A stretch of 64,000 nucleotides of DNA, taken from assembly GCA_041751875.1 (NCBI GenBank), contig JBGSIC010000029.1, positions 2,598 to 66,597 on the forward strand. The letters are read 5' to 3'. Below are positions 4,552-31,529 of this stretch, in pieces; the first letter of the stretch is position 1; every line of letters starts with the position of its first letter. The position numbers were made by a program, and so were the translations under genes. This DNA comes from Bdellovibrionota bacterium (GTDB lineage: Bacteria; Bdellovibrionota; FAC87; UBA2466; JACKAF01). The notes beneath the pieces were generated by a model. The model searched no databases, had not been told where the DNA came from, and saw only the letters and a program-made list of their open reading frames with translations.

Positions 4552-5325
4552 ATGAGAGGCCTATTAGCGATCGTAAAAAAAGAACTCAAAAGTTATTTCT
4601 ACTCGCCCGTAGCGTATGTGCTTCTGGCGATATTTCTTTTTATTATGGGTCTGATTTTCTCGAAGTTTGTGGGAATTTATCAGAGCTATAAGATGGCAAA
4701 CCAGTTCGGAGCAGCCCAGGATATTACTCTCGATAAGCTCGCTCTTTTTCTCTACCAGAACATGGCGTTCATGCTTTGTTTTATCACGCCGTTTATTACC
4801 ATGCGTTTGTTTGCGGAAGAGCGGCGTCAAAACACTTTTGAGCTCCTTTTGACTGCTCCTATCAGCAGTTTTCAGCTCGTGCTCGGGAAGTTTATCTCAG
4901 CGTATATTGTGATCGGCATTATGGTGCTTGCGTCCTTTGCGTACGCGTTTTTCATGATTCTTTGGGGTAATCCGGATGTTTACATTATCCTCTCCACTTA
5001 TTTGGGACTGCTTCTTGCGATGGGTTGTTACATCGCGCTTGGGGCGTTGATTTCCTCCTTCACAAGTAACCAGCTCATCGCCGCTGCCATTACCTTTATC
5101 GCTCTAATTTTCTTGTGGCTGCTTCAGAGCTTCGCGCAGGGAATCAACTTTAAGTTGGGTTGGCTGGAGCTCGGACCAGCTCTTGTGTATGTATCACCTT
5201 TAACCCATTTGAACAGTTTTCATGAAGGCGTGATTCATATCAAGCACGTGGTTTACTTCTTGAGTTCAATCGCGCTCATGCTCTTTTTCACAAACCGTGT
5301 GATCGAAAGTAATCGCTGGAGATAA
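4552..5325 (+). CDS. gldF: ABC-2 family permease (GldF-like)
   Basis: About six predicted TM helices, 257 aa. It starts 2 nt after the ATPase stop. Confidence 0.65.
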   Translation: MRGLLAIVKKELKSYFYSPVAYVLLAIFLFIMGLIFSKFVGIYQSYKMANQFGAAQDITLDKLALFLYQNMAFMLCFITPFITMRLFAEERRQNTFELLLTAPISSFQLVLGKFISAYIVIGIMVLASFAYAFFMILWGNPDVYIILSTYLGLLLAMGCYIALGALISSFTSNQLIAAAITFIALIFLWLLQSFAQGINFKLGWLELGPALVYVSPLTHLNSFHEGVIHIKHVVYFLSSIALMLFFTNRVIESNRWR

Positions 5326-5327
5326 GA

Positions 5328-6923
5328 ATGGATAAGAAAAACATGACTTCCCTCGCTGGTTACCTCGGTGTCGGGGCTCTTTTGCTCTCTGGCTTAGCCG
5401 CCTATTTGGTTCCTCATCTTGCGCTCATCTGGCAAATTGCTCTTGGTGTGGCGTTGGTTTCGCTTATCGCATTCATCGTTTTGGATCGAAAAAGTTTTCA
5501 GACCTCGCTTTCTCGCAAGACCACTCGGTACGGCATCAACGCTATCGTGATGAGCGTGATCATGCTTTTTATTGTCATTTTCATCAACGTGATCGCTAAC
5601 GAGTACGATCTTAAAAAAGATGTAACAAAAAACAAATTAAACACGCTTTCGGATGAAACCTTGAAGGTCCTTAAGGGGCTAGATTCCGAAATTACGGTTA
5701 AGGCATTCCTGCAGCCCACTCAGATTCCGATGTTCGATAGGATTTTCGAAAAGTACTCCTATCACACCGACAAACTGAAAAAAGAATATGTGGATCTCGA
5801 CAAAGATCCTCTCGCGGTAACCCGTTACAAAGTTAAGAGCGCGGGCACGTTGGTATTTGAGAGCCCCACGCGTTCCGCTCGCGTCGAAAATCTTCAGGGT
5901 GCGGATGACCCGAAGATGGAAGAAAAGGTCACCAACGCCATTGTGCAAGTAGCGAAAGGCGACAAGAAGAAAGTTTATTTTCTCAAGGGACATGGAGAGC
6001 GTTCGATCTCAGATACCGGTCGCGATGGTTACTCACAGATGAGAGAAACGTTGGAAAGCGGCCGTTATAAGGTGGAAGAATTGATGCTTCTGGATAAGGA
6101 TCAAATCCCTTCCGATGCGGATATGCTGATTATCGCGGGTCCGAAATCGGATTTCACCAAACATGAAACCGATTTACTCGAGAAATTTTTCCAGGCGGGG
6201 GGAAAAGGCATTGTGATGCTCGATCCGACTTCGACGCCCACGGTGGGAAGTTTACTCAAAACCCTCGGTACAACCTGGTCCCCCAATAGCACTATTTACG
6301 AGACTAATAAGTTGCAGCAATTAGCAGGGGGTAATCCACTTGCGCCGATTATCACTTCCTATGATCCCCGACACGAGATTACCAAGGAGAACCGCGAGCT
6401 AAGCATTTTCCCCGTCGCAAGCCCTGTAGAAAAAGCGGAAAAGGGACCAGATAATCTCCGTGTGCAGTCCTTGTTTAAGACCAGCGATCGCAGTTTGGTC
6501 GCAAACCTTAAGGGCAACCGCCTAGATGTGAATGAGAAAACCTCACGACGCGGCCCGATCTCTATCGCCGTAGCGGTTACAGGGACAGCCGGGAAGGATC
6601 CCGCTGTTGCCGATAACACGATCGCAAAAGAAGAACCTGCGGCTAAGAAAAAAGAAACGCGTGTCGTGGTAGTCGGGGACTCGGATTTCCCGGCCAATGG
6701 AGTGAGCCGTTTCGGCATCAACTCAGATATTTTTCAGAATATGCTGAGCTGGGTGGCACATGAAGAAGATTTGATTTCCGTTCGCCCGAAAGACACCAGC
6801 GTGAGTGAACTGGAAATCACCGATGCCCGTTTGCGGGTCATTCACGTGGCCTCCGTGTTTCTGCTGCCGATTCTGGCAGTTGTTGCCGCCATCGGTATCT
6901 CAATTAGCCGGCGACGCAAGTAG
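5328..6923 (+). CDS. gldG: GldG-like ABC-transport auxiliary protein
   Basis: 531 aa with an N-terminal TM segment and a C-terminal TM anchor (LLPILAVVAAIGISISRRRK) around a large periplasmic domain. Third gene of the triplet. Confidence 0.6.
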   Translation: MDKKNMTSLAGYLGVGALLLSGLAAYLVPHLALIWQIALGVALVSLIAFIVLDRKSFQTSLSRKTTRYGINAIVMSVIMLFIVIFINVIANEYDLKKDVTKNKLNTLSDETLKVLKGLDSEITVKAFLQPTQIPMFDRIFEKYSYHTDKLKKEYVDLDKDPLAVTRYKVKSAGTLVFESPTRSARVENLQGADDPKMEEKVTNAIVQVAKGDKKKVYFLKGHGERSISDTGRDGYSQMRETLESGRYKVEELMLLDKDQIPSDADMLIIAGPKSDFTKHETDLLEKFFQAGGKGIVMLDPTSTPTVGSLLKTLGTTWSPNSTIYETNKLQQLAGGNPLAPIITSYDPRHEITKENRELSIFPVASPVEKAEKGPDNLRVQSLFKTSDRSLVANLKGNRLDVNEKTSRRGPISIAVAVTGTAGKDPAVADNTIAKEEPAAKKKETRVVVVGDSDFPANGVSRFGINSDIFQNMLSWVAHEEDLISVRPKDTSVSELEITDARLRVIHVASVFLLPILAVVAAIGISISRRRK

Positions 6924-24163: not shown

Positions 24164-25765
24164 GTGCCGATGCGCACCCGCACCATCCAGTTGATCTCTC
24201 TTTTTGCCTTCTTCTTTTTAACTTCACCGGTCCTGGCTTCTCGGCTGATCAACGGAACGGTGGTCACCGAAGGATATGACCACGTGGTTTGGATCGTCTC
24301 CGGCGGGGCCGGTTGTACGGCGACGGTCGTAGGTCCGCGCACGATTCTTACCGCGGGCCATTGTGCCTCCACCGGGCAAACAGCAAAATTCAAAATTGGG
24401 GGGACCGAATACAGCGCGAAAATTACGCGACACCCTGACTACAACGATTCGAACGTGGAAAACGATTTGGCTCTTGGTCTTACCAATGTGGATATCGTGG
24501 TGAAGGAACGCTCCACCATCAGCAAGACTGCCCCCAAAGTGGGCGATGCTATTACGCTTTTAGGTTACGGGTGCACGAAACCCAACGGACAGGTCGACGG
24601 CAAATTGCGCAAGGGTGATTCTGTGATCACCAAGTTTCAAGGTAAAGACATGGGCTCTCACAAAGAGAGTGGAGCCACTCTCTGCCCCGGGGATTCCGGT
24701 GGACCCGCGTATATCTCTGTCGGCGGCAAAGATTACCTTGCAGGTGTCAATTCCACTGTGACCGTGGACTACCACACGAGCTACGATGAGCGCACGGACG
24801 TGCCGACTGCTCAGCAGTTTTTCTCGAACTACGCCCAAAGTAATGGTGTGAAAATCTGCGGTGTAAACGAAGATTGCCAGGGCACAACACCCACAGCACC
24901 CACCTGCCAACTCGCCGCCAGTCCCAGCACGATTAATAAAGGACAAAGTATTACGTTTACGATGAACGTCTTAGGCGAAGTGACCTCGGCCGATATCGGC
25001 GGCGTCGCTGTGACCGCCCCGAACTGGGCGATGACCACAACGCCTCCGAACGCCGGTAATTTCACCCAAACGGGCAAAGTGACCGGACCGGGGGGCAGCA
25101 ACACCTGTACGGCTGCCTATGAAGTAAAGGGGGATCCCACGCCTACCAATCCGACTTGTGAAATTGCGGCCAACCCGTCTCAGATCAAGATTGGAAACAG
25201 CACGCTTCTTACGCTCAAAGCGAAAGGCAATGTCACCCAAGCCGCCATTAACGGCATGAACGTTTCCTTTCCGGAAGGTTCCCTCTCCGTTCAGGGCACA
25301 ATAAAGGGACAGCAGCAGGCCACGGGTTTTGTCGCGGGTCCTGGTGGCGTGGGCACCTGCCAAACCACTTTTAACGTCGATGACGGCACGCAACCGGTCA
25401 TTCCGCCTTATGCGGTGGTGCCGAGTTACTGTGGTCCGAATACGGCACCTAATTCTTCGGTCATGAAAGCGTGTTTGGGGGTGATTAAGCGCGACGGCAC
25501 CCAAGGTTTGCGCGAAGCCGTAAAAGTCACCTACGCTGACGGCTCCGAAGAAGTGTTGCCTCTGGTCGCGAAGACGAGAAACAACTCCGCTGTCATCGAA
25601 GATGCGCTTACCCTGTACGCGAATTCCAGCTACCAAAAAGATCAGTATTGGGTACTTAACAGCCGCGTAGGACGCGTGACCTACAATGCAAACAATACTC
25701 CGGTCACCCTCGAAGGAACCACTGCGGGTGGCGAGCTCTTCTCCGTTTCGCAGTTACAACCATAG
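24164..25765 (+). CDS. Secreted trypsin-like (S1) serine protease with repeated C-terminal Thr/Pro-rich domains
   Basis: Signal peptide, His-site LTAGHC, Ser-site GDSGGP. Two similar about 90-aa C-terminal modules begin with PT..C..AA.PS.I..G. Confidence 0.8.
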   Translation: MPMRTRTIQLISLFAFFFLTSPVLASRLINGTVVTEGYDHVVWIVSGGAGCTATVVGPRTILTAGHCASTGQTAKFKIGGTEYSAKITRHPDYNDSNVENDLALGLTNVDIVVKERSTISKTAPKVGDAITLLGYGCTKPNGQVDGKLRKGDSVITKFQGKDMGSHKESGATLCPGDSGGPAYISVGGKDYLAGVNSTVTVDYHTSYDERTDVPTAQQFFSNYAQSNGVKICGVNEDCQGTTPTAPTCQLAASPSTINKGQSITFTMNVLGEVTSADIGGVAVTAPNWAMTTTPPNAGNFTQTGKVTGPGGSNTCTAAYEVKGDPTPTNPTCEIAANPSQIKIGNSTLLTLKAKGNVTQAAINGMNVSFPEGSLSVQGTIKGQQQATGFVAGPGGVGTCQTTFNVDDGTQPVIPPYAVVPSYCGPNTAPNSSVMKACLGVIKRDGTQGLREAVKVTYADGSEEVLPLVAKTRNNSAVIEDALTLYANSSYQKDQYWVLNSRVGRVTYNANNTPVTLEGTTAGGELFSVSQLQP

Positions 25766-26005
25766 AAATCCCTCAAGCAGGAGAAAAAACTTCCAGCGCC
25801 CAACCTTCAAAGGGGGCCACATCCCTGGCGCCCCTGCCCATTTGGAAAGCATTGGGTCCGCGCTCATGCGCTAACCGTTCCGGAAAGTGCCAAAGGACCT
25901 GAGAGAACGACAATCCGCAGTGGCCACTGCCGCACCAATCCTAGCCGGCATGAAATTTTCGTAGCGGATGAGTTTGATGAAATTGCGCTGCAGCATTTCA
26001 AAACC

Positions 26006-26527
26006 TTGAGCGGAGATTCTAAAGTGCTGCCGACGCCCTACAATCTCGGTTTTTCAAACGGGAATGAGTTTGATTTGCCCATCGCGGGATGGACAAAATT
26101 CTGGAACGACATCTTCCAGCCCAAGATTTCTTTGGATCCCAACCTTGTAAAAGCCCTTGTGGCGTCAGAGTCTGGATTTCGCACCAAAGTACAGCTCCCA
26201 AGCAAAGCGGGGCCGGCGCGCGGCCTTATCCAGGTTACGGAACAGGCACGCAAGATTCTTGGAAACTCCGAGGGCGAGCTTCGCGACTTTTTGATCACTA
26301 TCACTAAAGAGCAGGTCAATGAGCCAAATACAAATATTGCATCGGGGATCCGTTGGCTATTTCATAAAAAGGAGCTCGCGAAACATCGATTGAAGCGGGA
26401 GGCGACATGGGAAGAAGCCATTGCCGAGTATAAGGGTATCTTGAATCAGCTCGGAAAAATAGAGAAGGCAGATAGCATCATGGAAAAGCTCCAAGATTAT
26501 TACACACGCTTGAGAGAAAAAAGATGA
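26006..26527 (+). CDS. SLT-domain lytic transglycosylase-like protein
   Basis: Catalytic-Glu motif LVASESGF followed by GLIQV (the SLT ES..GLMQ signature). Confidence 0.55.
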   Translation: MSGDSKVLPTPYNLGFSNGNEFDLPIAGWTKFWNDIFQPKISLDPNLVKALVASESGFRTKVQLPSKAGPARGLIQVTEQARKILGNSEGELRDFLITITKEQVNEPNTNIASGIRWLFHKKELAKHRLKREATWEEAIAEYKGILNQLGKIEKADSIMEKLQDYYTRLREKR

Positions 26528-27003
26528 AGTTGCTTTTACTTCTTTTACTTTTGGTTTCAGCGTTTGCTTCGGGCAACGTTAAGGTACACAAGCAGACAAA
26601 ACAATTCATTGATATTGAGGTTCCAGTAGGAGACGTTTTTATTCATTGTACGAATGTTAATCCGGAGGAGAAAAACTTCCTTTTGACAGTTTACCTTTTA
26701 GATGGCCGAAGTTTACACGAGTTTGACTATCGGACGGTACGGAGTGAGGTGGAATGCCAAGAAGAAAAAGCCACCTATCACGGACTTTTAAAGGAAAGCC
26801 GAACCGCGCGGCTCGTTGGTATCTCACCCCTGCCTCGTAAAATGAGCCCAGCTCCCAAGGGTGCACCAGTGAAATTTCGTGCTGTATCCTCACGAATCAT
26901 TTGGACCTTTATACGGCTTCAGACGCCAAGAGCATGTAAGCCCTACTTCACAATCGATTGTACCCTTCCGGAAAACTATTGGGGTGGAGTCATTCCAGAG
27001 TAG
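26524..27003 (+). CDS. Small secreted Cys-containing hypothetical protein
   Basis: Signal peptide MKLLLLLLLLVSAFASG. There is an ATGA start/stop overlap with the upstream SLT gene. Confidence 0.45.
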   Translation: MKLLLLLLLLVSAFASGNVKVHKQTKQFIDIEVPVGDVFIHCTNVNPEEKNFLLTVYLLDGRSLHEFDYRTVRSEVECQEEKATYHGLLKESRTARLVGISPLPRKMSPAPKGAPVKFRAVSSRIIWTFIRLQTPRACKPYFTIDCTLPENYWGGVIPE

Positions 27004-27146
27004 CTCTATGAAGAAGGTTTCGATGCCTCTCCATTGCGGGGTTAGAGTCCTAACTCTCCCGCAAGTTTTTCTTTTAAATGTAATGCCTTACCTATACCTG
27101 ACAATTAAATGTATATTAGCCTGACAATGACTGTTACAATGTCTCA

Positions 27147-28178
27147 ATGAGTACCCGAGATAAAATCTTGGTCGAAGCGAGGCGAAAGAGGGAAATCCGC
27201 ACGCGTGAGCTTGTCGAAAAGCTGGGGATCTCGCGTCAGAGCGTTGCTGCACAACTAAAATCTCTAGTAGATTCGGGTGTGCTCTCACGGAGTGGTTCTA
27301 CCCGAAGCGCCTGCTACCGCCTTGCGAGTCAAGCCCGAAAAAAAACGGTCGTTGAGTTATCTCTTATAAAGAAAACCAAAGGGCTTGAAGAGGACCGAGT
27401 TTTTCTCGAGGCGGATCGCAAGCTCGGCCTATCGAGAGAGTTGAACAGGAACGCCTTTTCGATTCTTTCTTATGCATTCACCGAAATGTTGAACAACGCC
27501 ATCGATCATTCGGGCAGCGAAACTGCGTCCGCACGTTTTTGGATGGAAAAGGGAAATATTCAGTTTGAGGTGCGTGATTTCGGGATTGGAATCTTTCGCA
27601 AGGTTTCAAGAGACTTTAGGCTAGAGAACGAATTTGAGGGCATGGAGCATGTTCTAAAGGGTAAACAGACGTCGCAGCCTTCGGCTCACTCGGGCGAGGG
27701 AATTTTCTTCACGTCTCGCATTGCGGATGTATTTACTTTGCGCAGTCACCATTTGCAGGTCAGAATCGACAATAGAGTAAGTGATACTTTTGTCTCAGAA
27801 CCCAAAAAGATTGTGGGTACCAGTGTACAATTCTCGATTTCTATAAACACGAAGAAGCATTTGAGCAAACTCTTTGCGAAACATACCAACGCAGATTTCA
27901 TGTTTGATCGAGCAGATCAACGGCTGAAGGTTGCGGCTTTCGGAGGTGCCTTATCTCGGTCACAAGCCAAGCGACTTCTGCAAGGTCTAGAGTCTTTCGA
28001 CCGCCTGACGTTCGATTTCAAAGGGGTCACCGAAATCGGCCAAGGCTTTGCCGACGAGGTTTTCCGTATTTACTCGCAAGCGAACCCAAAGAAACAACTG
28101 GACTACACGAACGCCAGTCCTGCAATTGAGCTGATGATCCAGCGAGCAAGGAAATCCGCAAAAAAAGTAAGTTTATGA
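27147..28178 (+). CDS. Single-polypeptide regulator: winged-HTH + GHKL (RsbW-like) ATPase/kinase + C-terminal STAS-like (DUF4325-type) domain
   Basis: HTH region RELVEKLGISRQSVAAQLKSL. GHKL N-box EMLNNAIDHS and G-box RDFGIGIF. The C-terminal module DFKGVTEIGQGFADEVFRIY is STAS-like. Confidence 0.55.
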   Translation: MSTRDKILVEARRKREIRTRELVEKLGISRQSVAAQLKSLVDSGVLSRSGSTRSACYRLASQARKKTVVELSLIKKTKGLEEDRVFLEADRKLGLSRELNRNAFSILSYAFTEMLNNAIDHSGSETASARFWMEKGNIQFEVRDFGIGIFRKVSRDFRLENEFEGMEHVLKGKQTSQPSAHSGEGIFFTSRIADVFTLRSHHLQVRIDNRVSDTFVSEPKKIVGTSVQFSISINTKKHLSKLFAKHTNADFMFDRADQRLKVAAFGGALSRSQAKRLLQGLESFDRLTFDFKGVTEIGQGFADEVFRIYSQANPKKQLDYTNASPAIELMIQRARKSAKKVSL

Positions 28179-28355
28179 CGAGAGAGTATAGGTTTGGGAA
28201 GATTATCTACTTTGTTTCATAGCAACTTCGCGAGAGCAGTTGAACGCCGCCATTCCCGCTCGGCTTTAAGCCAGATTTCTGAAACCATTCAAAGCAGGAG
28301 TCATTTCCAAAAGAGCAGGAGCAAACGGCGAGGACAAAGGAAATGAATAACTTTC

Positions 28356-29144
28356 TCATCCTGGTTTAGGGCTGACGGTTATAAAGACCAACTCGGGGCG
28401 CGAAAGAAATCTAATGGGCAGGATAGAAGTTCCTAATCCCCGGCTTACGTACATTTTTGTTGCGTCCGATTCATACCAGCCGGAAACGTAATCTCCGCTC
28501 CCACGAGGCAGCCAAAGCGGCCCTATCCCCGGCAATAATACCTGCCCTCCGTGCGTGTGGCCCGAGAGTGCTAACGGACAGACATCCTTTACGGAATCAA
28601 AAAACTCCGGCGAATGAAAAAGCGATATACAAAAATTATCATTGTTGTGTTCGGAAGCAATCGCCCGTGAAGGCTGGCCCGCATTACTATCGTCGAAGCC
28701 GTAAAGGGTAAGATCCTTTCTAGGAGTGGCCGTTTCGTTTAATAAAAGGTGAATACCTAGTTTTTCGAATTGTGAGGGGGCAACCATGTTCTGCCAGTGC
28801 TCCCAATTTCCTAAAGCCGAATAAATTCCTAGCGGAGCACTTAAGTCCTTGAAAAACTCTGCGGCAGCATCCGCACTTTTTTCACTATCCAGTGTGTCAC
28901 CGGTAATCAGAATGATGTCTGGTGCTTCCGCTTTTAGGGCAGCGATCACTTTTCGTTCAAGAAAACCAACTTTGCGGAGATGAAGGTCGCTTAGATGAGC
29001 AATTTTTAGAGGGGCATCGACGGGTCCCAAAACTTCCAGCGAGGTAATAGAAAGCAGGTGGGGTTCGAGAAGGGAATAGGAAAGAAGAATGACCGAGGAC
29101 AATGCTACGCCAAGAAGGATGCGACGAATACCCATTGAGCCCAA
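28356..29144 (-). CDS. Calcineurin-like metallophosphoesterase (membrane-anchored)
   Basis: Motifs DLH, GDTLD, GNWEHW and GHTHGG. Confidence 0.75.
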   Translation of the reverse strand: MGSMGIRRILLGVALSSVILLSYSLLEPHLLSITSLEVLGPVDAPLKIAHLSDLHLRKVGFLERKVIAALKAEAPDIILITGDTLDSEKSADAAAEFFKDLSAPLGIYSALGNWEHWQNMVAPSQFEKLGIHLLLNETATPRKDLTLYGFDDSNAGQPSRAIASEHNNDNFCISLFHSPEFFDSVKDVCPLALSGHTHGGQVLLPGIGPLWLPRGSGDYVSGWYESDATKMYVSRGLGTSILPIRFLSRPELVFITVSPKPG

Positions 29145-29198
29145 TTATAGTCCCAATCGGGCCCGGGGGCGCAATCCCTAATGTTCTAGACCGTAGGT

Positions 29199-31529
29199 CT
29201 AAAGTGAACCCACCAAAACAGATCGGCGTTTAGCGGGGCCTGCAGCAGCCCCCACCACCCCTTCTTTTTCCATCTGTTCCATGAGTGTCGCGGCACGGTT
29301 GTAGCCAATCTTAAGATGGCGTTGGAGTAAGGAAATGCTCGCTTCGCCCCTATCCGTGACAATGCGCACGGCTTGGTCGTAGAGACTTCCGCCATCCCCG
29401 CCTTCGCTCTCCTCGAGTTCCATGCTCTCTTCGAGGTTAGCCAAGATCGCTTCATCGTAATCCGGGCCCGCTTGGGCTTTGAGGTGTGAAATCACGCGAT
29501 CGAGGTCGGCATCCTCAATATAAGAACCCTGCATACGTTTCAGTGTGTTGAATCCGGCCGAATGGAAAAGCATGTCACCGTTACCAAGTAAGCGCTCCGC
29601 ACCCGGGCGATCCAAAATCGTTTTGGAATCCACGCCGGAGGCTACGCGAAACGATATGCGGCTGGGGAAGTTGGCTTTGATTGTTCCCGTGACGACATCG
29701 GTGGAAGGACGTTGCGTGGCAAGCACCATGTGAATGCCGCTCGCGCGCGCCTTTTGCGCGAGACGCGCAACCGAATGCTCCACTTCTTTGGGTACAACGG
29801 CCATGAGATCCGCGTATTCGTCGATTACGGTGACGATGTAAGGCATAAACGCCAAGTCCAAGGCTTCGCCTTGTTTCTGGAGTTCATTGAGTTTGGCGTT
29901 GTAGGAATCCACGTGTCTTACGCCGGACTTATGCAGAATGTGATAGCGACGTTCCATCTCGTCGATAAGCCAACGCAAAGCCAATACGGCTTTTTTCGCG
30001 TCTACCACTACTGGTAGCATCAAGTGCGGAATGCCTTCGTAATGCGAAAGCTCCACCATCTTGGGATCGACCAAAATGAGTTTGAGCTGCTGCGGGGCAA
30101 AGCGGTACAGCAAACTACAAATCAGTGTGTTTACGAAAACGGATTTACCGGTACCCGTGGCTCCCGCGACCAGCAAATGCGGCATTGCTGCGAGATCGGT
30201 AAGAATAGGTTCGCCAGAAGCCAGACGGCCGAGGGCAATCGGAATGCGTCTATCGCTTTTATAAAAAGGCGTTTCTTGAACGATATCTTTGAAAAACACC
30301 ATTTCACGTTCCGGAGTCGGAATTTCAATACCAACAACAGGTTTCCCGGGAATGGGGGCGACGATACGAACGCTCAGGACACTCAACGCTAAAGTGAGAT
30401 CATCAGAGAGATTCGCGATTTCACGAATTTTAATACCGCTCGCGGGTTTAAATTCGTAAACGGTGATCACCGGACCGGGAGCGACATTTACAATTTCCCC
30501 ATCCACACCGAAGTCGGCTAGTTTTTCGACTAAGAGTTTTCCCTTGTCGATGTACCACTGCTTATCGATGCCGCGTTCTTTGCGGTTACTTCGCCCAGAA
30601 AGAAAATCAGCAGAAGGCAATTGGAAGTTTTTTGTCGCAAGGGGCATGCGAAGTTGTTTCGGGCGGCGAAGTACCTTTTCTTCGGCATCCTCAATATGGG
30701 CAAAATCTTCATCGCGTGGGTGTTCCACAAAAGAGATCACTTCGGCAGGCGAAATAGGTGACGTAACCGAAGGCGCTTCCGTGGGGGTTGTGGCAATAGG
30801 AGCGGGCGACAGAAAGGTGTCGGAAGGCGCTTCAACCTGCTTTTTCCAAAACTTAGGGATACGAATGCGTACGGGCGGAATCTTCTGGATTGCCGATTTA
30901 ACGACGAGATAAAGTTTCATAGGTGATTTTACAATCGACCAGAAGATCTCTTTCTTGTTCATTTCCTTTTGTGAAAAGGGGCGCCACTCAAAAAGGATAA
31001 TCAAAGACGAGATAAATCCGAACACACCCAAGACAAGTGCGCCCAGCCAACCTAAAGGGTAGAGCAGGCCATGGTAGATAAAGCGTCCAACAAGTCCGCC
31101 CGCCAAATTGAGATTCCACGGTAGCGCGGTGGCCGGGTAGAGCACGTGAAATAGAGTGGTGGTCGATACCACAAATAGCAAAGCGCCAATGGACCATAAG
31201 CGATCATCTTGCGCTTCATCGGCTTGGCGTTTCACGCCTGCGATGATGAGAAGAAAAGGGAAACAGAACGCGCCCAAACCAAAAACAAGATACGCGAGAT
31301 CCGCGCTCATGCTTCCTAGACGTCCCATCCAGTTCTGCACGGCGTTTTTTGTTGTCCACGTGCTCCACGAAGGATCGGAGGCGGAGTAACTAACGAGTGC
31401 CGCGATGAGTACGATGGCAGCAGCAAAATAAAGTAGATGATGAATTTCTTCCCACACCCCTTTTTTGTTTTCGGGCACGTAGGGAAAAAATGGATTCGAC
31501 GGCTGCGAGCGGTTTGATCGTGTTGCCAT
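29199..31529 (-). CDS. ftsK: DNA translocase FtsK/SpoIIIE
   Basis: N-terminal TM domain plus linker. Motor domain with Walker A GATGTGKS, and a C-terminal gamma (wHTH) domain. Confidence 0.9.
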   Translation of the reverse strand: MATRSNRSQPSNPFFPYVPENKKGVWEEIHHLLYFAAAIVLIAALVSYSASDPSWSTWTTKNAVQNWMGRLGSMSADLAYLVFGLGAFCFPFLLIIAGVKRQADEAQDDRLWSIGALLFVVSTTTLFHVLYPATALPWNLNLAGGLVGRFIYHGLLYPLGWLGALVLGVFGFISSLIILFEWRPFSQKEMNKKEIFWSIVKSPMKLYLVVKSAIQKIPPVRIRIPKFWKKQVEAPSDTFLSPAPIATTPTEAPSVTSPISPAEVISFVEHPRDEDFAHIEDAEEKVLRRPKQLRMPLATKNFQLPSADFLSGRSNRKERGIDKQWYIDKGKLLVEKLADFGVDGEIVNVAPGPVITVYEFKPASGIKIREIANLSDDLTLALSVLSVRIVAPIPGKPVVGIEIPTPEREMVFFKDIVQETPFYKSDRRIPIALGRLASGEPILTDLAAMPHLLVAGATGTGKSVFVNTLICSLLYRFAPQQLKLILVDPKMVELSHYEGIPHLMLPVVVDAKKAVLALRWLIDEMERRYHILHKSGVRHVDSYNAKLNELQKQGEALDLAFMPYIVTVIDEYADLMAVVPKEVEHSVARLAQKARASGIHMVLATQRPSTDVVTGTIKANFPSRISFRVASGVDSKTILDRPGAERLLGNGDMLFHSAGFNTLKRMQGSYIEDADLDRVISHLKAQAGPDYDEAILANLEESMELEESEGGDGGSLYDQAVRIVTDRGEASISLLQRHLKIGYNRAATLMEQMEKEGVVGAAAGPAKRRSVLVGSL

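Follow-up and report, generated by a model that had tools for sequence, protein, structure and literature searches.

The 64,000-nucleotide stretch of a Bdellovibrionota bacterium genome analysed here (contig JBGSIC010000029.1, positions 2,598 to 66,597; referred to as the window) encodes a 343-residue protein in which an N-terminal winged helix-turn-helix (wHTH) domain is followed by an ATP-binding domain of the SpoIIAB/RsbW type, with its nucleotide-binding motifs intact, and by a C-terminal STAS-like domain. The gene is preceded by short direct repeats, which recur upstream of related genes in many phyla. The family to which the protein belongs is already automatically annotated in the databases and functionally unstudied; its probable operator is newly recognised and widely conserved. 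Taken as a whole, the gene is read as a monocistronic, autoregulated one-component regulator, a proposal that we consider slightly more likely than not. The parts of the protein, in window coordinates, are as follows.

27147..28178, + strand: complete open reading frame (ORF) of 343 residues, ATG start, stop codon included (ORF list, Pfam trio, AlphaFold model).
27147..27332, + strand: wHTH domain, residues 1-62 (HTH_24, MarR and ArsR/SmtB subfamily matches; secondary structure of the model; conservation).
27234..27272, + strand: predicted recognition helix, residues 30-42, RQSVAAQLKSLVD (model helix, conservation, covariation with the operator).
27348..27884, + strand: GHKL (Bergerat-fold) ATP-binding domain of the SpoIIAB/RsbW type, residues ~68-246 (HATPase_c_2, HATPase_c, Foldseek, profile alignment).
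27483..27512, + strand: N-box EMLNNAIDHS, residues 113-122 (E113, N116, N117 and H121 invariant in 76 sequences).
27576..27596, + strand: G1 box DFGIGIF, residues 144-150 (G146 and G148 invariant; D144 in 75/76).
27657..27716, + strand: ATP-lid and G2 region KGKQTSQPSAHSGEGIFFTS, residues 171-190 (conservation, model).
27909..28175, + strand: STAS-like DUF4325 domain, residues 255-343 (DUF4325 at 5.2e-10, domain-only model, STAS folds, column statistics).

A Pfam scan located three domains in the single chain, each scoring above its curated cut-off: HTH_24 over residues 6-46 (24.0 bits against 21.9), HATPase_c_2 over residues 100-199 (30.2 bits against 27.4) and DUF4325 (PF14213) over residues 273-327 (39.3 bits against 23). 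A first-pass annotation, made by reading the sequence, had proposed a fusion of wHTH, RsbW-like GHKL core and DUF4325-type module within this ORF. Both the ORF and the three-part fusion are borne out, the fold matches agreeing with the Pfam assignments: the N-terminus is a winged HTH (HTH_24/MarR) and the C-terminus aligns to DUF4325. The protein is identical to a 343-residue product present in a public collection (P0001), and in NCBIfam it has no model specific to it, only generic wHTH models. The AlphaFold model of the full-length protein has a mean pLDDT of 87.8. Residue conservation, here and below, was counted in an alignment of 76 family sequences.

The modelled wHTH comprises helices extending over residues 3-13, 19-26 and 30-42, followed by wing strands at residues 46-49 and 56-59. 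R30 and Q31 of the recognition helix are nearly invariant, as is the wing motif G50-S51-T52. The best PDB sequence matches of the N-terminus are MarR/ArsR-type structures, with profile hits to AdcR and AspA, while the NCBIfam matches comprise an ArsR/SmtB subfamily and, weakly, the N-terminus of YjjJ.

A Foldseek search with the model returned SpoIIAB first (PDB code 1til_E; E 7.5e-7, TM 0.77 on the target), followed by RsbW (6m36) and LvrC (9qih; E 6e-4), and the profile of the GHKL part aligns with the N-box and G1 box of SpoIIAB. These matches uphold the RsbW-like core of the first-pass annotation, and the two motifs it had quoted are found at residues 113-122 and 144-150. The lid and G2 region has the family consensus KGKQTTxPxxHSGQGIFFTS, in which G172, H181, G183, G185, F187 and F188 are invariant; the ATP lid is the lowest-confidence part of the AlphaFold model. 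The Bergerat ATP-site signature (N-box E/N, G1 DxGxG, G2 GxG) is complete in the protein.

The C-terminal 92 residues, modelled alone, reach a pLDDT of 88.7 and present a β-α-β-α-β-α layout. This isolated model is most similar, at weak E-values, to STAS domains, the best PDB folds being RsbR/RsbS, the prestin STAS domain, SpoIIAA (PDB code 1tid_B; TM 0.63 on the query, rmsd 2.9) and the YchM STAS domain, with TM scores of ~0.6; together with the DUF4325 score, this agrees with the C-terminal module as first annotated. Residues R271, S272, A274, D290, G298, Q299 and F306 are invariant, and S270, F291, F301, D303 and E304 nearly so. Several of them (R271, S272, D290, G298 and Q299, with the near-invariant S270, F291, D303 and E304) are placed where helices 1 and 2 begin, forming a conserved face that presumably corresponds to the one in contact with the kinase in the SpoIIAB-SpoIIAA structures. 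In an alignment by eye to the SpoIIAA sequence, I297 presumably corresponds to the phosphorylated Ser58. The I297 column holds I, V, L or M in 76/76 members and the two columns preceding it are variable. Because the presumed Ser58-equivalent column, which bears no Ser/Thr, is hydrophobic in every aligned member, a canonical phosphorylation-driven partner switch appears unlikely, if the equivalence holds.

The protein belongs to a large family. A search of public proteins gave at least 7,996 significant matches (7,996 of 8,000 scored candidates), and an exhaustive profile search of cluster representatives at 50% identity delimited 984 clusters at E <= 1e-30 and 2,312 at E <= 1e-10. Among the best 120 matches nearly all are 310-360 residues long, PF14213 is found in 120/120 and HATPase_c_2 or HATPase_c nearly always; they are annotated as 'DUF4325 domain-containing protein' or as 'anti-sigma regulatory factor (Ser/Thr protein kinase)/predicted transcriptional regulator'. 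Homologous loci were collected from species-representative genomes, all of them metagenome-assembled, and numbered 80, of which ~35 are from Patescibacteria and the others from Bdellovibrionota, Omnitrophota, Nitrospira, Gamma-, Beta- and Deltaproteobacteria, Verrucomicrobia and further groups. Across phyla the proteins share 36-47% identity and measure 335-350 residues. The closest relatives of the window protein, at loci L001 and L004, are 67% and 64% identical to it.

The region between the preceding gene and the start codon contains the following elements.

27034..27075, + strand: terminator-like hairpin and U-run after the ORF at 26524-27003 (RNA fold, inverted repeat).
27074..27084, no strand assigned: TTAAATGTAAT, which aligns with the inverted site TTAATTGTCAG of L001 and L004 (3.3 bits on the minus strand).
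27097..27105, + strand: predicted operator site 1, CCTGACAAT, with the core TGACAAT at 27099 (best position-weight-matrix match in 64 kb, 13.8 bits).
27120..27128, + strand: predicted operator site 2, CCTGACAAT, 23 bp after site 1 (matrix hit, alignment of relatives).
27133..27140, + strand: predicted operator site 3, GTTACAAT, 12 bp after site 2 (alignment; layout common to L001 and L004).

The repeats thus lie where the first-pass annotation had placed them. The exact CCTGACAAT pair, taken alone, is weak, two or more copies arising in 7/100 shuffles. The 64 kb contain 11 occurrences of the core T[GT]ACAAT, against 13.3 expected. Three of them are packed into the 42 bp immediately preceding the start codon, and 0/1000 first-order shuffles produced three same-strand cores within 45 bp. 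When the region is aligned with those of L001 and L004, the three sites stand out as invariant blocks while the spacers drift, and the relatives have a layout like that of the window (CCTGACAAT, 23 bp, CCTGACAAT, 12 bp, (G/C)TTACAAT), with the sites in the order G-G-T. The weak element TTAAATGTAAT is probably a decayed copy of the inverted site. A fourth in-phase site at 27110-27117 (TGTATATT) was considered and dropped, having 4/7 core bases only and no conservation in L001 or L004.

The same sites characterise the family. The 100-200 nucleotides before each start codon were read, and 77 family loci were compared with 879 other upstream regions from the same loci as controls, counts being expressed per 150 nucleotides. 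Nearly every family locus carries 2-11 copies of (T)T[GT]ACAAT in the orientation of the gene. Forward T[GT]ACAAT sites number 2.75 per 150 nucleotides in the family and 0.061 in the controls, a 45-fold difference, and two or more forward sites are present at 61/77 family loci against 4/879 controls (Fisher p = 5e-76). Successive sites are spaced by 11 bp (44 cases), 12 bp (11), 21-24 bp (49) or 32-35 bp (9), and therefore lie on one face of the helix. The consensus of 179 sites is G-T-T-[G/T]-A-C-A-A-T-[T/A]. Its variation follows the recognition helix: with the SRQ-type helix the base after ACAA is T in 178/209 sites, and an SR[AT]Y..RFF helix, present at eight loci, goes with T in 0/14 and C in 10/14 sites, giving TTGACAACTT, of which inverted copies also occur. 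The more distant relatives on viral contigs show a like pattern: T[GT]ACAAT sites are retained where the helix is of the SRQ type, and other repeats accompany an ISLNTVYRYI-type helix. Because the sites are conserved across phyla, phased with the helix and covariant with the recognition helix, the wHTH very probably binds T(T/C)[GT]ACAAT sites about one helical turn apart within 50 bp before the start codon, as judged from sequence patterns; the same three observations strongly support the 'operator-like' character that the first-pass annotation had guessed from a single sequence.

Several loci depart from the simple upstream array. At L179:10985-11106 at least ten tandem copies of TGACAATctgt follow one another with an exact 11-bp period at the end of the contig. 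The operator of L209 is symmetric, with two inverted and two direct sites spaced by 23, 11 and 23 bp, and at L205 a single pair, one site inverted and one direct at a distance of 11 bp, is as clear, further sites following at spacings of 35 and 22 bp. One subclade outside Patescibacteria has a second array, of three TTGACAAT sites (spacing ~24 and 11 bp), lying across the stop codon of the family gene (L032:9011-9046, L039:3495-3530, L049:3055-3089, L050:2101-2134 and L067:9008-9042; L056 at ~5405-5436 has two sites). No conserved ORF lies downstream of these 3' arrays at the six loci, and the arrays could serve DNA looping or a downstream transcript, or mark the boundary of a tandem cassette. 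L032 and L039 are paralogous copies ~11 kb apart on contig CAYHGV010000043.1, each with 5' and 3' arrays that are bordered by pyrimidine-rich CTACGC/CTTACG-type tracts.

A wider regulon was sought by scanning metagenomes for TTGACAAT-N3-TTGACAAT, which returned at least 120 loci. Among the 120 listed, 15 are linked to a family gene, 14 of them with three or more sites, and 90 of the 105 others are bare pairs that probably arose by chance. The genes after the few unlinked three-site arrays are heterogeneous (DEAD-box-like, zinc-finger, ECF-sigma-like), and no regulon could be defined among the loci listed. One such array, at L173:296-330, lies 186 nucleotides upstream of an ECF-sigma-like ORF on a 1.2-kb metagenomic contig without a family gene.

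The family gene of the window appears to form its own transcription unit. The hairpin at 27034-27075 has a folding energy of -15.4 kcal/mol (z -3.5; equally stable shuffles 0/200); a simple terminator scan missed it, its stem being broken by a 3-nucleotide bulge. Given this terminator-like hairpin upstream and a convergent gene downstream of 28178, the gene is taken to be monocistronic. As a separate transcription unit it must have its promoter within 27076-27146, precisely the interval that contains the sites, which themselves resemble the -35 (TTGACA) and -10 (TACAAT) hexamers. In the layout common among Patescibacteria (TTGACAAT, 11 bp, TTGACAAT, 22 bp, TTTACAAT, 11 bp, TTTACAAT) the second and third sites would read as -35 TTGACA and -10 TACAAT with a spacer of 17-18 bp, and at spacings of 20-24 bp the G-type site (TTGACA) precedes the T-type site (TACAAT) 20 times, against 4 in the reverse order. 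Because the sites cover the sole possible place for a promoter and resemble its hexamers, repression by the protein of its own gene is likely, though argued from sequence. The TACAAT of site 3, a candidate -10 element, ends 6 nucleotides upstream of the ATG at 27147. No Shine-Dalgarno sequence can be discerned in front of this start codon, so that a leaderless or very short-leader mRNA is possible. In the family loci the last site lies 7-36 nucleotides from the ATG. Among the 64 SRQ-type loci there are ~20 whose last site stops 6-10 nucleotides short of the start codon, which suggests leaderless or very short-leader mRNAs in the family. A minus-strand promoter call in 27060-27146 is the reverse of site 1 and was set aside as a probable artefact, and Rfam models gave no RNA element match in 26000-29500.

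In the mechanism that we favour, several wHTH subunits of an oligomer would sit side by side on the phased direct repeats over their own promoter, where the bound protein would cover the -35, -10 and +1 positions, occlude RNA polymerase and so repress its own transcription. The GHKL kinase domain and the STAS-like domain would together make up a partner switch in cis, in which the latter docks on the former as a non-phosphorylatable pseudo-substrate. Docking would be governed by the nucleotide bound, or by a ligand or protein attached to the conserved face of the STAS-like domain; the docking state would in turn determine how the protein oligomerises and how tightly it binds DNA, or would release the GHKL domain for a different partner. 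That a switch of this kind, in either of its two outcomes, operates here is a tentative proposal, to which we give somewhat less than even weight.

The comparison with known systems brings out what is particular to this arrangement. The middle domain shares its Bergerat fold and motifs with SpoIIAB and RsbW, and the C-terminal domain has a fold like that of their STAS partners SpoIIAA and RsbV; unlike in those pairs, both domains are here in one chain, a wHTH stands in front of them and no sigma gene is adjacent. The STAS-like domain further differs from SpoIIAA in being of the short DUF4325 type and in the hydrophobic residue at its presumed phospho-acceptor position. The N-terminal domain matches wHTH autorepressors of the MarR/ArsR/Lrp type, and like theirs its sites overlap its own promoter. 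These families typically bind palindromes as dimers, whereas the sites of the present family are mostly direct repeats in an 11-bp phase, in 2-11 copies, and a kinase-like, ATP-binding module forms the effector part. The Leptospira protein LvrC, described as an ADP-bound homodimer and putative anti-sigma factor, joins a Rec domain to an RsbW-like Bergerat domain (PMC13269768); it resembles the family in this fusion of an RsbW-like domain to a regulatory domain, and its structure 9qih is among the best matches, but its control domain is an N-terminal phospho-receiver and it has neither STAS nor HTH. In Rv1364c of M. tuberculosis a sensor, a PP2C phosphatase, a GHKL kinase and an anti-sigma antagonist are combined in one protein, which is reported to autophosphorylate and autodephosphorylate its antagonist domain (PMC7693655). 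Kinase and STAS-type substrate are fused in cis there as here; the present family, however, lacks the phosphatase, the sensor and the phosphorylatable antagonist, and adds a wHTH, absent from Rv1364c, and a conserved operator. The first-pass annotation had remarked that the fusion is not a textbook arrangement. No paper describing the wHTH-GHKL-DUF4325 architecture or its operator was found in the literature, DUF4325 being named only in passing. The architecture is not rare, however, the family being large and of constant length, and Rv1364c is a precedent for the kinase-STAS fusion.

Several observations weigh against the regulator proposal. The full-length model has a pTM of only 0.64, which bears on the docking of the STAS-like domain onto the GHKL domain. 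The similarity to STAS folds is weak in terms of E-value (0.07-0.9, at probabilities of 0.72-0.97), and no PDB relative of the STAS-like domain was found at the sequence level, the best hits, to toxin A, being noise. Repeats and protein are linked through correlation. A consensus promoter scan of 27060-27146 found no + strand promoter, and reading sites 1 and 2 as -35 and -10 requires a 19-bp spacer. The sites at 27097-27140 are the sole cluster in the window and almost none was found in ~1.1 Mb of flanks; a regulator acting on nothing but its own gene would lack an obvious output. Lastly, that the gene is patchily distributed, has copies in prophages and in places lies beside toxin-antitoxin genes would suit a selfish or defence gene no less than a regulator.

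This last point leads to the strongest of the alternatives, namely that the gene is a fused, single-gene addiction or anti-phage module, in which the RsbW-like kinase would be a growth-arresting effector that sequesters a host or phage protein or phosphorylates it, the STAS-like domain would be an in-cis antidote or pseudo-substrate released by a trigger, and the wHTH would do no more than keep expression low, as type II antitoxins do. It has the logic of HipA-family YjjJ and of fused toxin-antitoxins, CapRel-type proteins being an example, in placing HTH, effector and in-cis inhibitor in one polypeptide; its catalytic part, however, is not homologous to theirs, and PADLOC recognises nothing beyond the HTH. 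The matches in PADLOC-DB v2 (Csa3, CARF-associated and SoFic models) are confined to the wHTH, residues 90-343 having none to any defence model, and this counts against the module, as does a tblastn search without a match in 72,556 plasmids and 50,697 phage genomes. In its favour, the gene behaves as a self-contained cassette that brings its own conserved operator into many phyla, and two copies occur on the one contig that holds L032 and L039; on the other side, its sequence and length are unusually conserved (36-47% identity, 335-350 residues), unlike those of fast-evolving defence genes. One paper reports that DUF4325 genes are transcriptionally coupled to a group of PIN (VapC-like) genes (PMC5499597), which also speaks for an addiction module.

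Genomic context bears on the same alternative from both sides. Clustering of the ORFs within +-8 kb of 81 homologous loci revealed no conserved neighbour, a sign that the gene stands alone, as the regulator proposal has it; the variable contexts are in keeping with an addiction or anti-phage module. A multi-gene system was considered and rejected, since nothing recurs beyond a Fic/DOC gene, found within 8 kb in 8/81 loci, which itself adds some weight to the addiction reading. Its product contains the motif HPFxxGNGR and a C-terminal wHTH, and in six cases the gene lies less than 1 kb away on the same strand; among the eight, the L030 copy alone has two upstream TTTACAAT sites.

Fic/DOC genes: L029:6709-7782, L034:9311-10363, L041:6701-7762, L055:3843-4898, L061:1451-2401, L070:9761-10879, L030:1143-2174 and L063:3758-4645.

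A 47%-identical member lies between BrnT/BrnA and MNT/HepT toxin-antitoxin pairs with transposases nearby (L205-L207, gene at 5001-6032; L209, gene at 5001-6014), a further point for an addiction module, and one homologue sits between ndk and pyrD. Relatives with 29-38% identity are encoded on 50 IMG/VR predicted viral or prophage contigs (L210-L259, in 31 groups), which again favours this reading: in a Firmicutes-like group, for example at L248:5908-6957, a phage transcription regulator (phrog_36) lies on one side of the gene and the small terminase (phrog_51) on the other, and the group has a different recognition helix and different, CTATAGTTAAA-like, upstream repeats; other relatives adjoin recombinases. 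The GHKL part moreover matches phrog_3364, a phage family of unknown function. The first-pass annotation had suggested that defence islands or stress regulons be sought around such genes; what was found is some toxin-antitoxin and prophage-like settings without a conserved neighbour.

In the window, by contrast with what an addiction module would lead one to expect, the gene lies among housekeeping genes (LolA, FtsK and Rho among them), with no compositional break around it. Pfam identifies its housekeeping and envelope neighbours as YajQ, LolA, a trypsin-like protease, an SLT domain protein and a metallophosphoesterase, and a RimO/MiaB-like protein, FtsK, a cold-shock protein and Rho were named from their translations by eye. 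Upstream are two small overlapping ORFs, one for the SLT lytic transglycosylase domain protein (26006-26527) and one for a secreted hypothetical protein with a signal peptide and no Pfam match (26524-27003); the trypsin-like protease, with repeated Thr/Pro-rich modules, precedes them at 24164-25765. Weighing these points, we regard the addiction or anti-phage module as rather unlikely, yet deserving of attention. A more specific form of it, a mobile three-in-one conflict module made of kinase effector, fused STAS pseudo-substrate and fused autorepressor, in which a phage or stress signal would displace the STAS-like domain, is marginally less credible still. Within such a module the autorepressor, whose operator would imitate the host's -35/-10 hexamers, would keep the copy low.

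The protein might alternatively be a DNA-tethered anti-sigma factor, whose GHKL domain would sequester a sigma factor, whose STAS-like domain would compete in cis for the same surface and whose wHTH would hold it on promoter-like repeats. The closest structures (SpoIIAB, RsbW and the Rec-fused putative anti-sigma factor LvrC) would suit this idea, as would the resemblance of the operator to sigma-70 -35/-10 hexamers and the three-site array of L173 before an ECF-sigma-like ORF. Against it, no sigma factor gene was found among the ORFs of the window between 22000 and 34000 (~5 kb on each side), none recurs in the 81 loci, no binding partner can be named and the single ECF case may be chance; we therefore rate it as improbable. 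Finally, that the repeats are merely strong or duplicated promoter elements, or chance in AT-rich DNA, was already disfavoured and is very hard to credit: the site does hold TTGACA and TACAAT, the exact 9-mer pair is not significant in shuffles and the non-family metagenomic pairs among the loci listed are mostly bare and chance-like, but the 45-fold enrichment over upstream regions of the same loci, the 11-bp phasing, the covariation with the recognition helix, the conservation of sites as blocks between drifting spacers, the presence of up to 11 copies per locus and the second 3' array of some clades all stand against it.

Partner-switching modules, consisting of an anti-sigma kinase and a STAS antagonist, are textbook devices of sigma-factor control. 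In the family described here the two partner-switch domains are fused to a DNA-binding domain, apparently without a phosphorylation step or a sigma factor, which suggests that the partner-switch module can be put to general use, responding to a nucleotide or ligand and directly driving the binding of DNA. The family is especially common in the genome-reduced Patescibacteria, which have few regulators. Its nearly universal operator, (T)T[GT]ACAAT in an 11-bp phase, makes binding, stoichiometry and signal response addressable with one protein and one 90-bp fragment. If the addiction or defence alternative were true, the family would be a new single-gene system of this kind, widespread in Patescibacteria, Bdellovibrionota, Nitrospirota and prophages. 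Either reading gives DUF4325, a domain of unknown function, a concrete and testable function.

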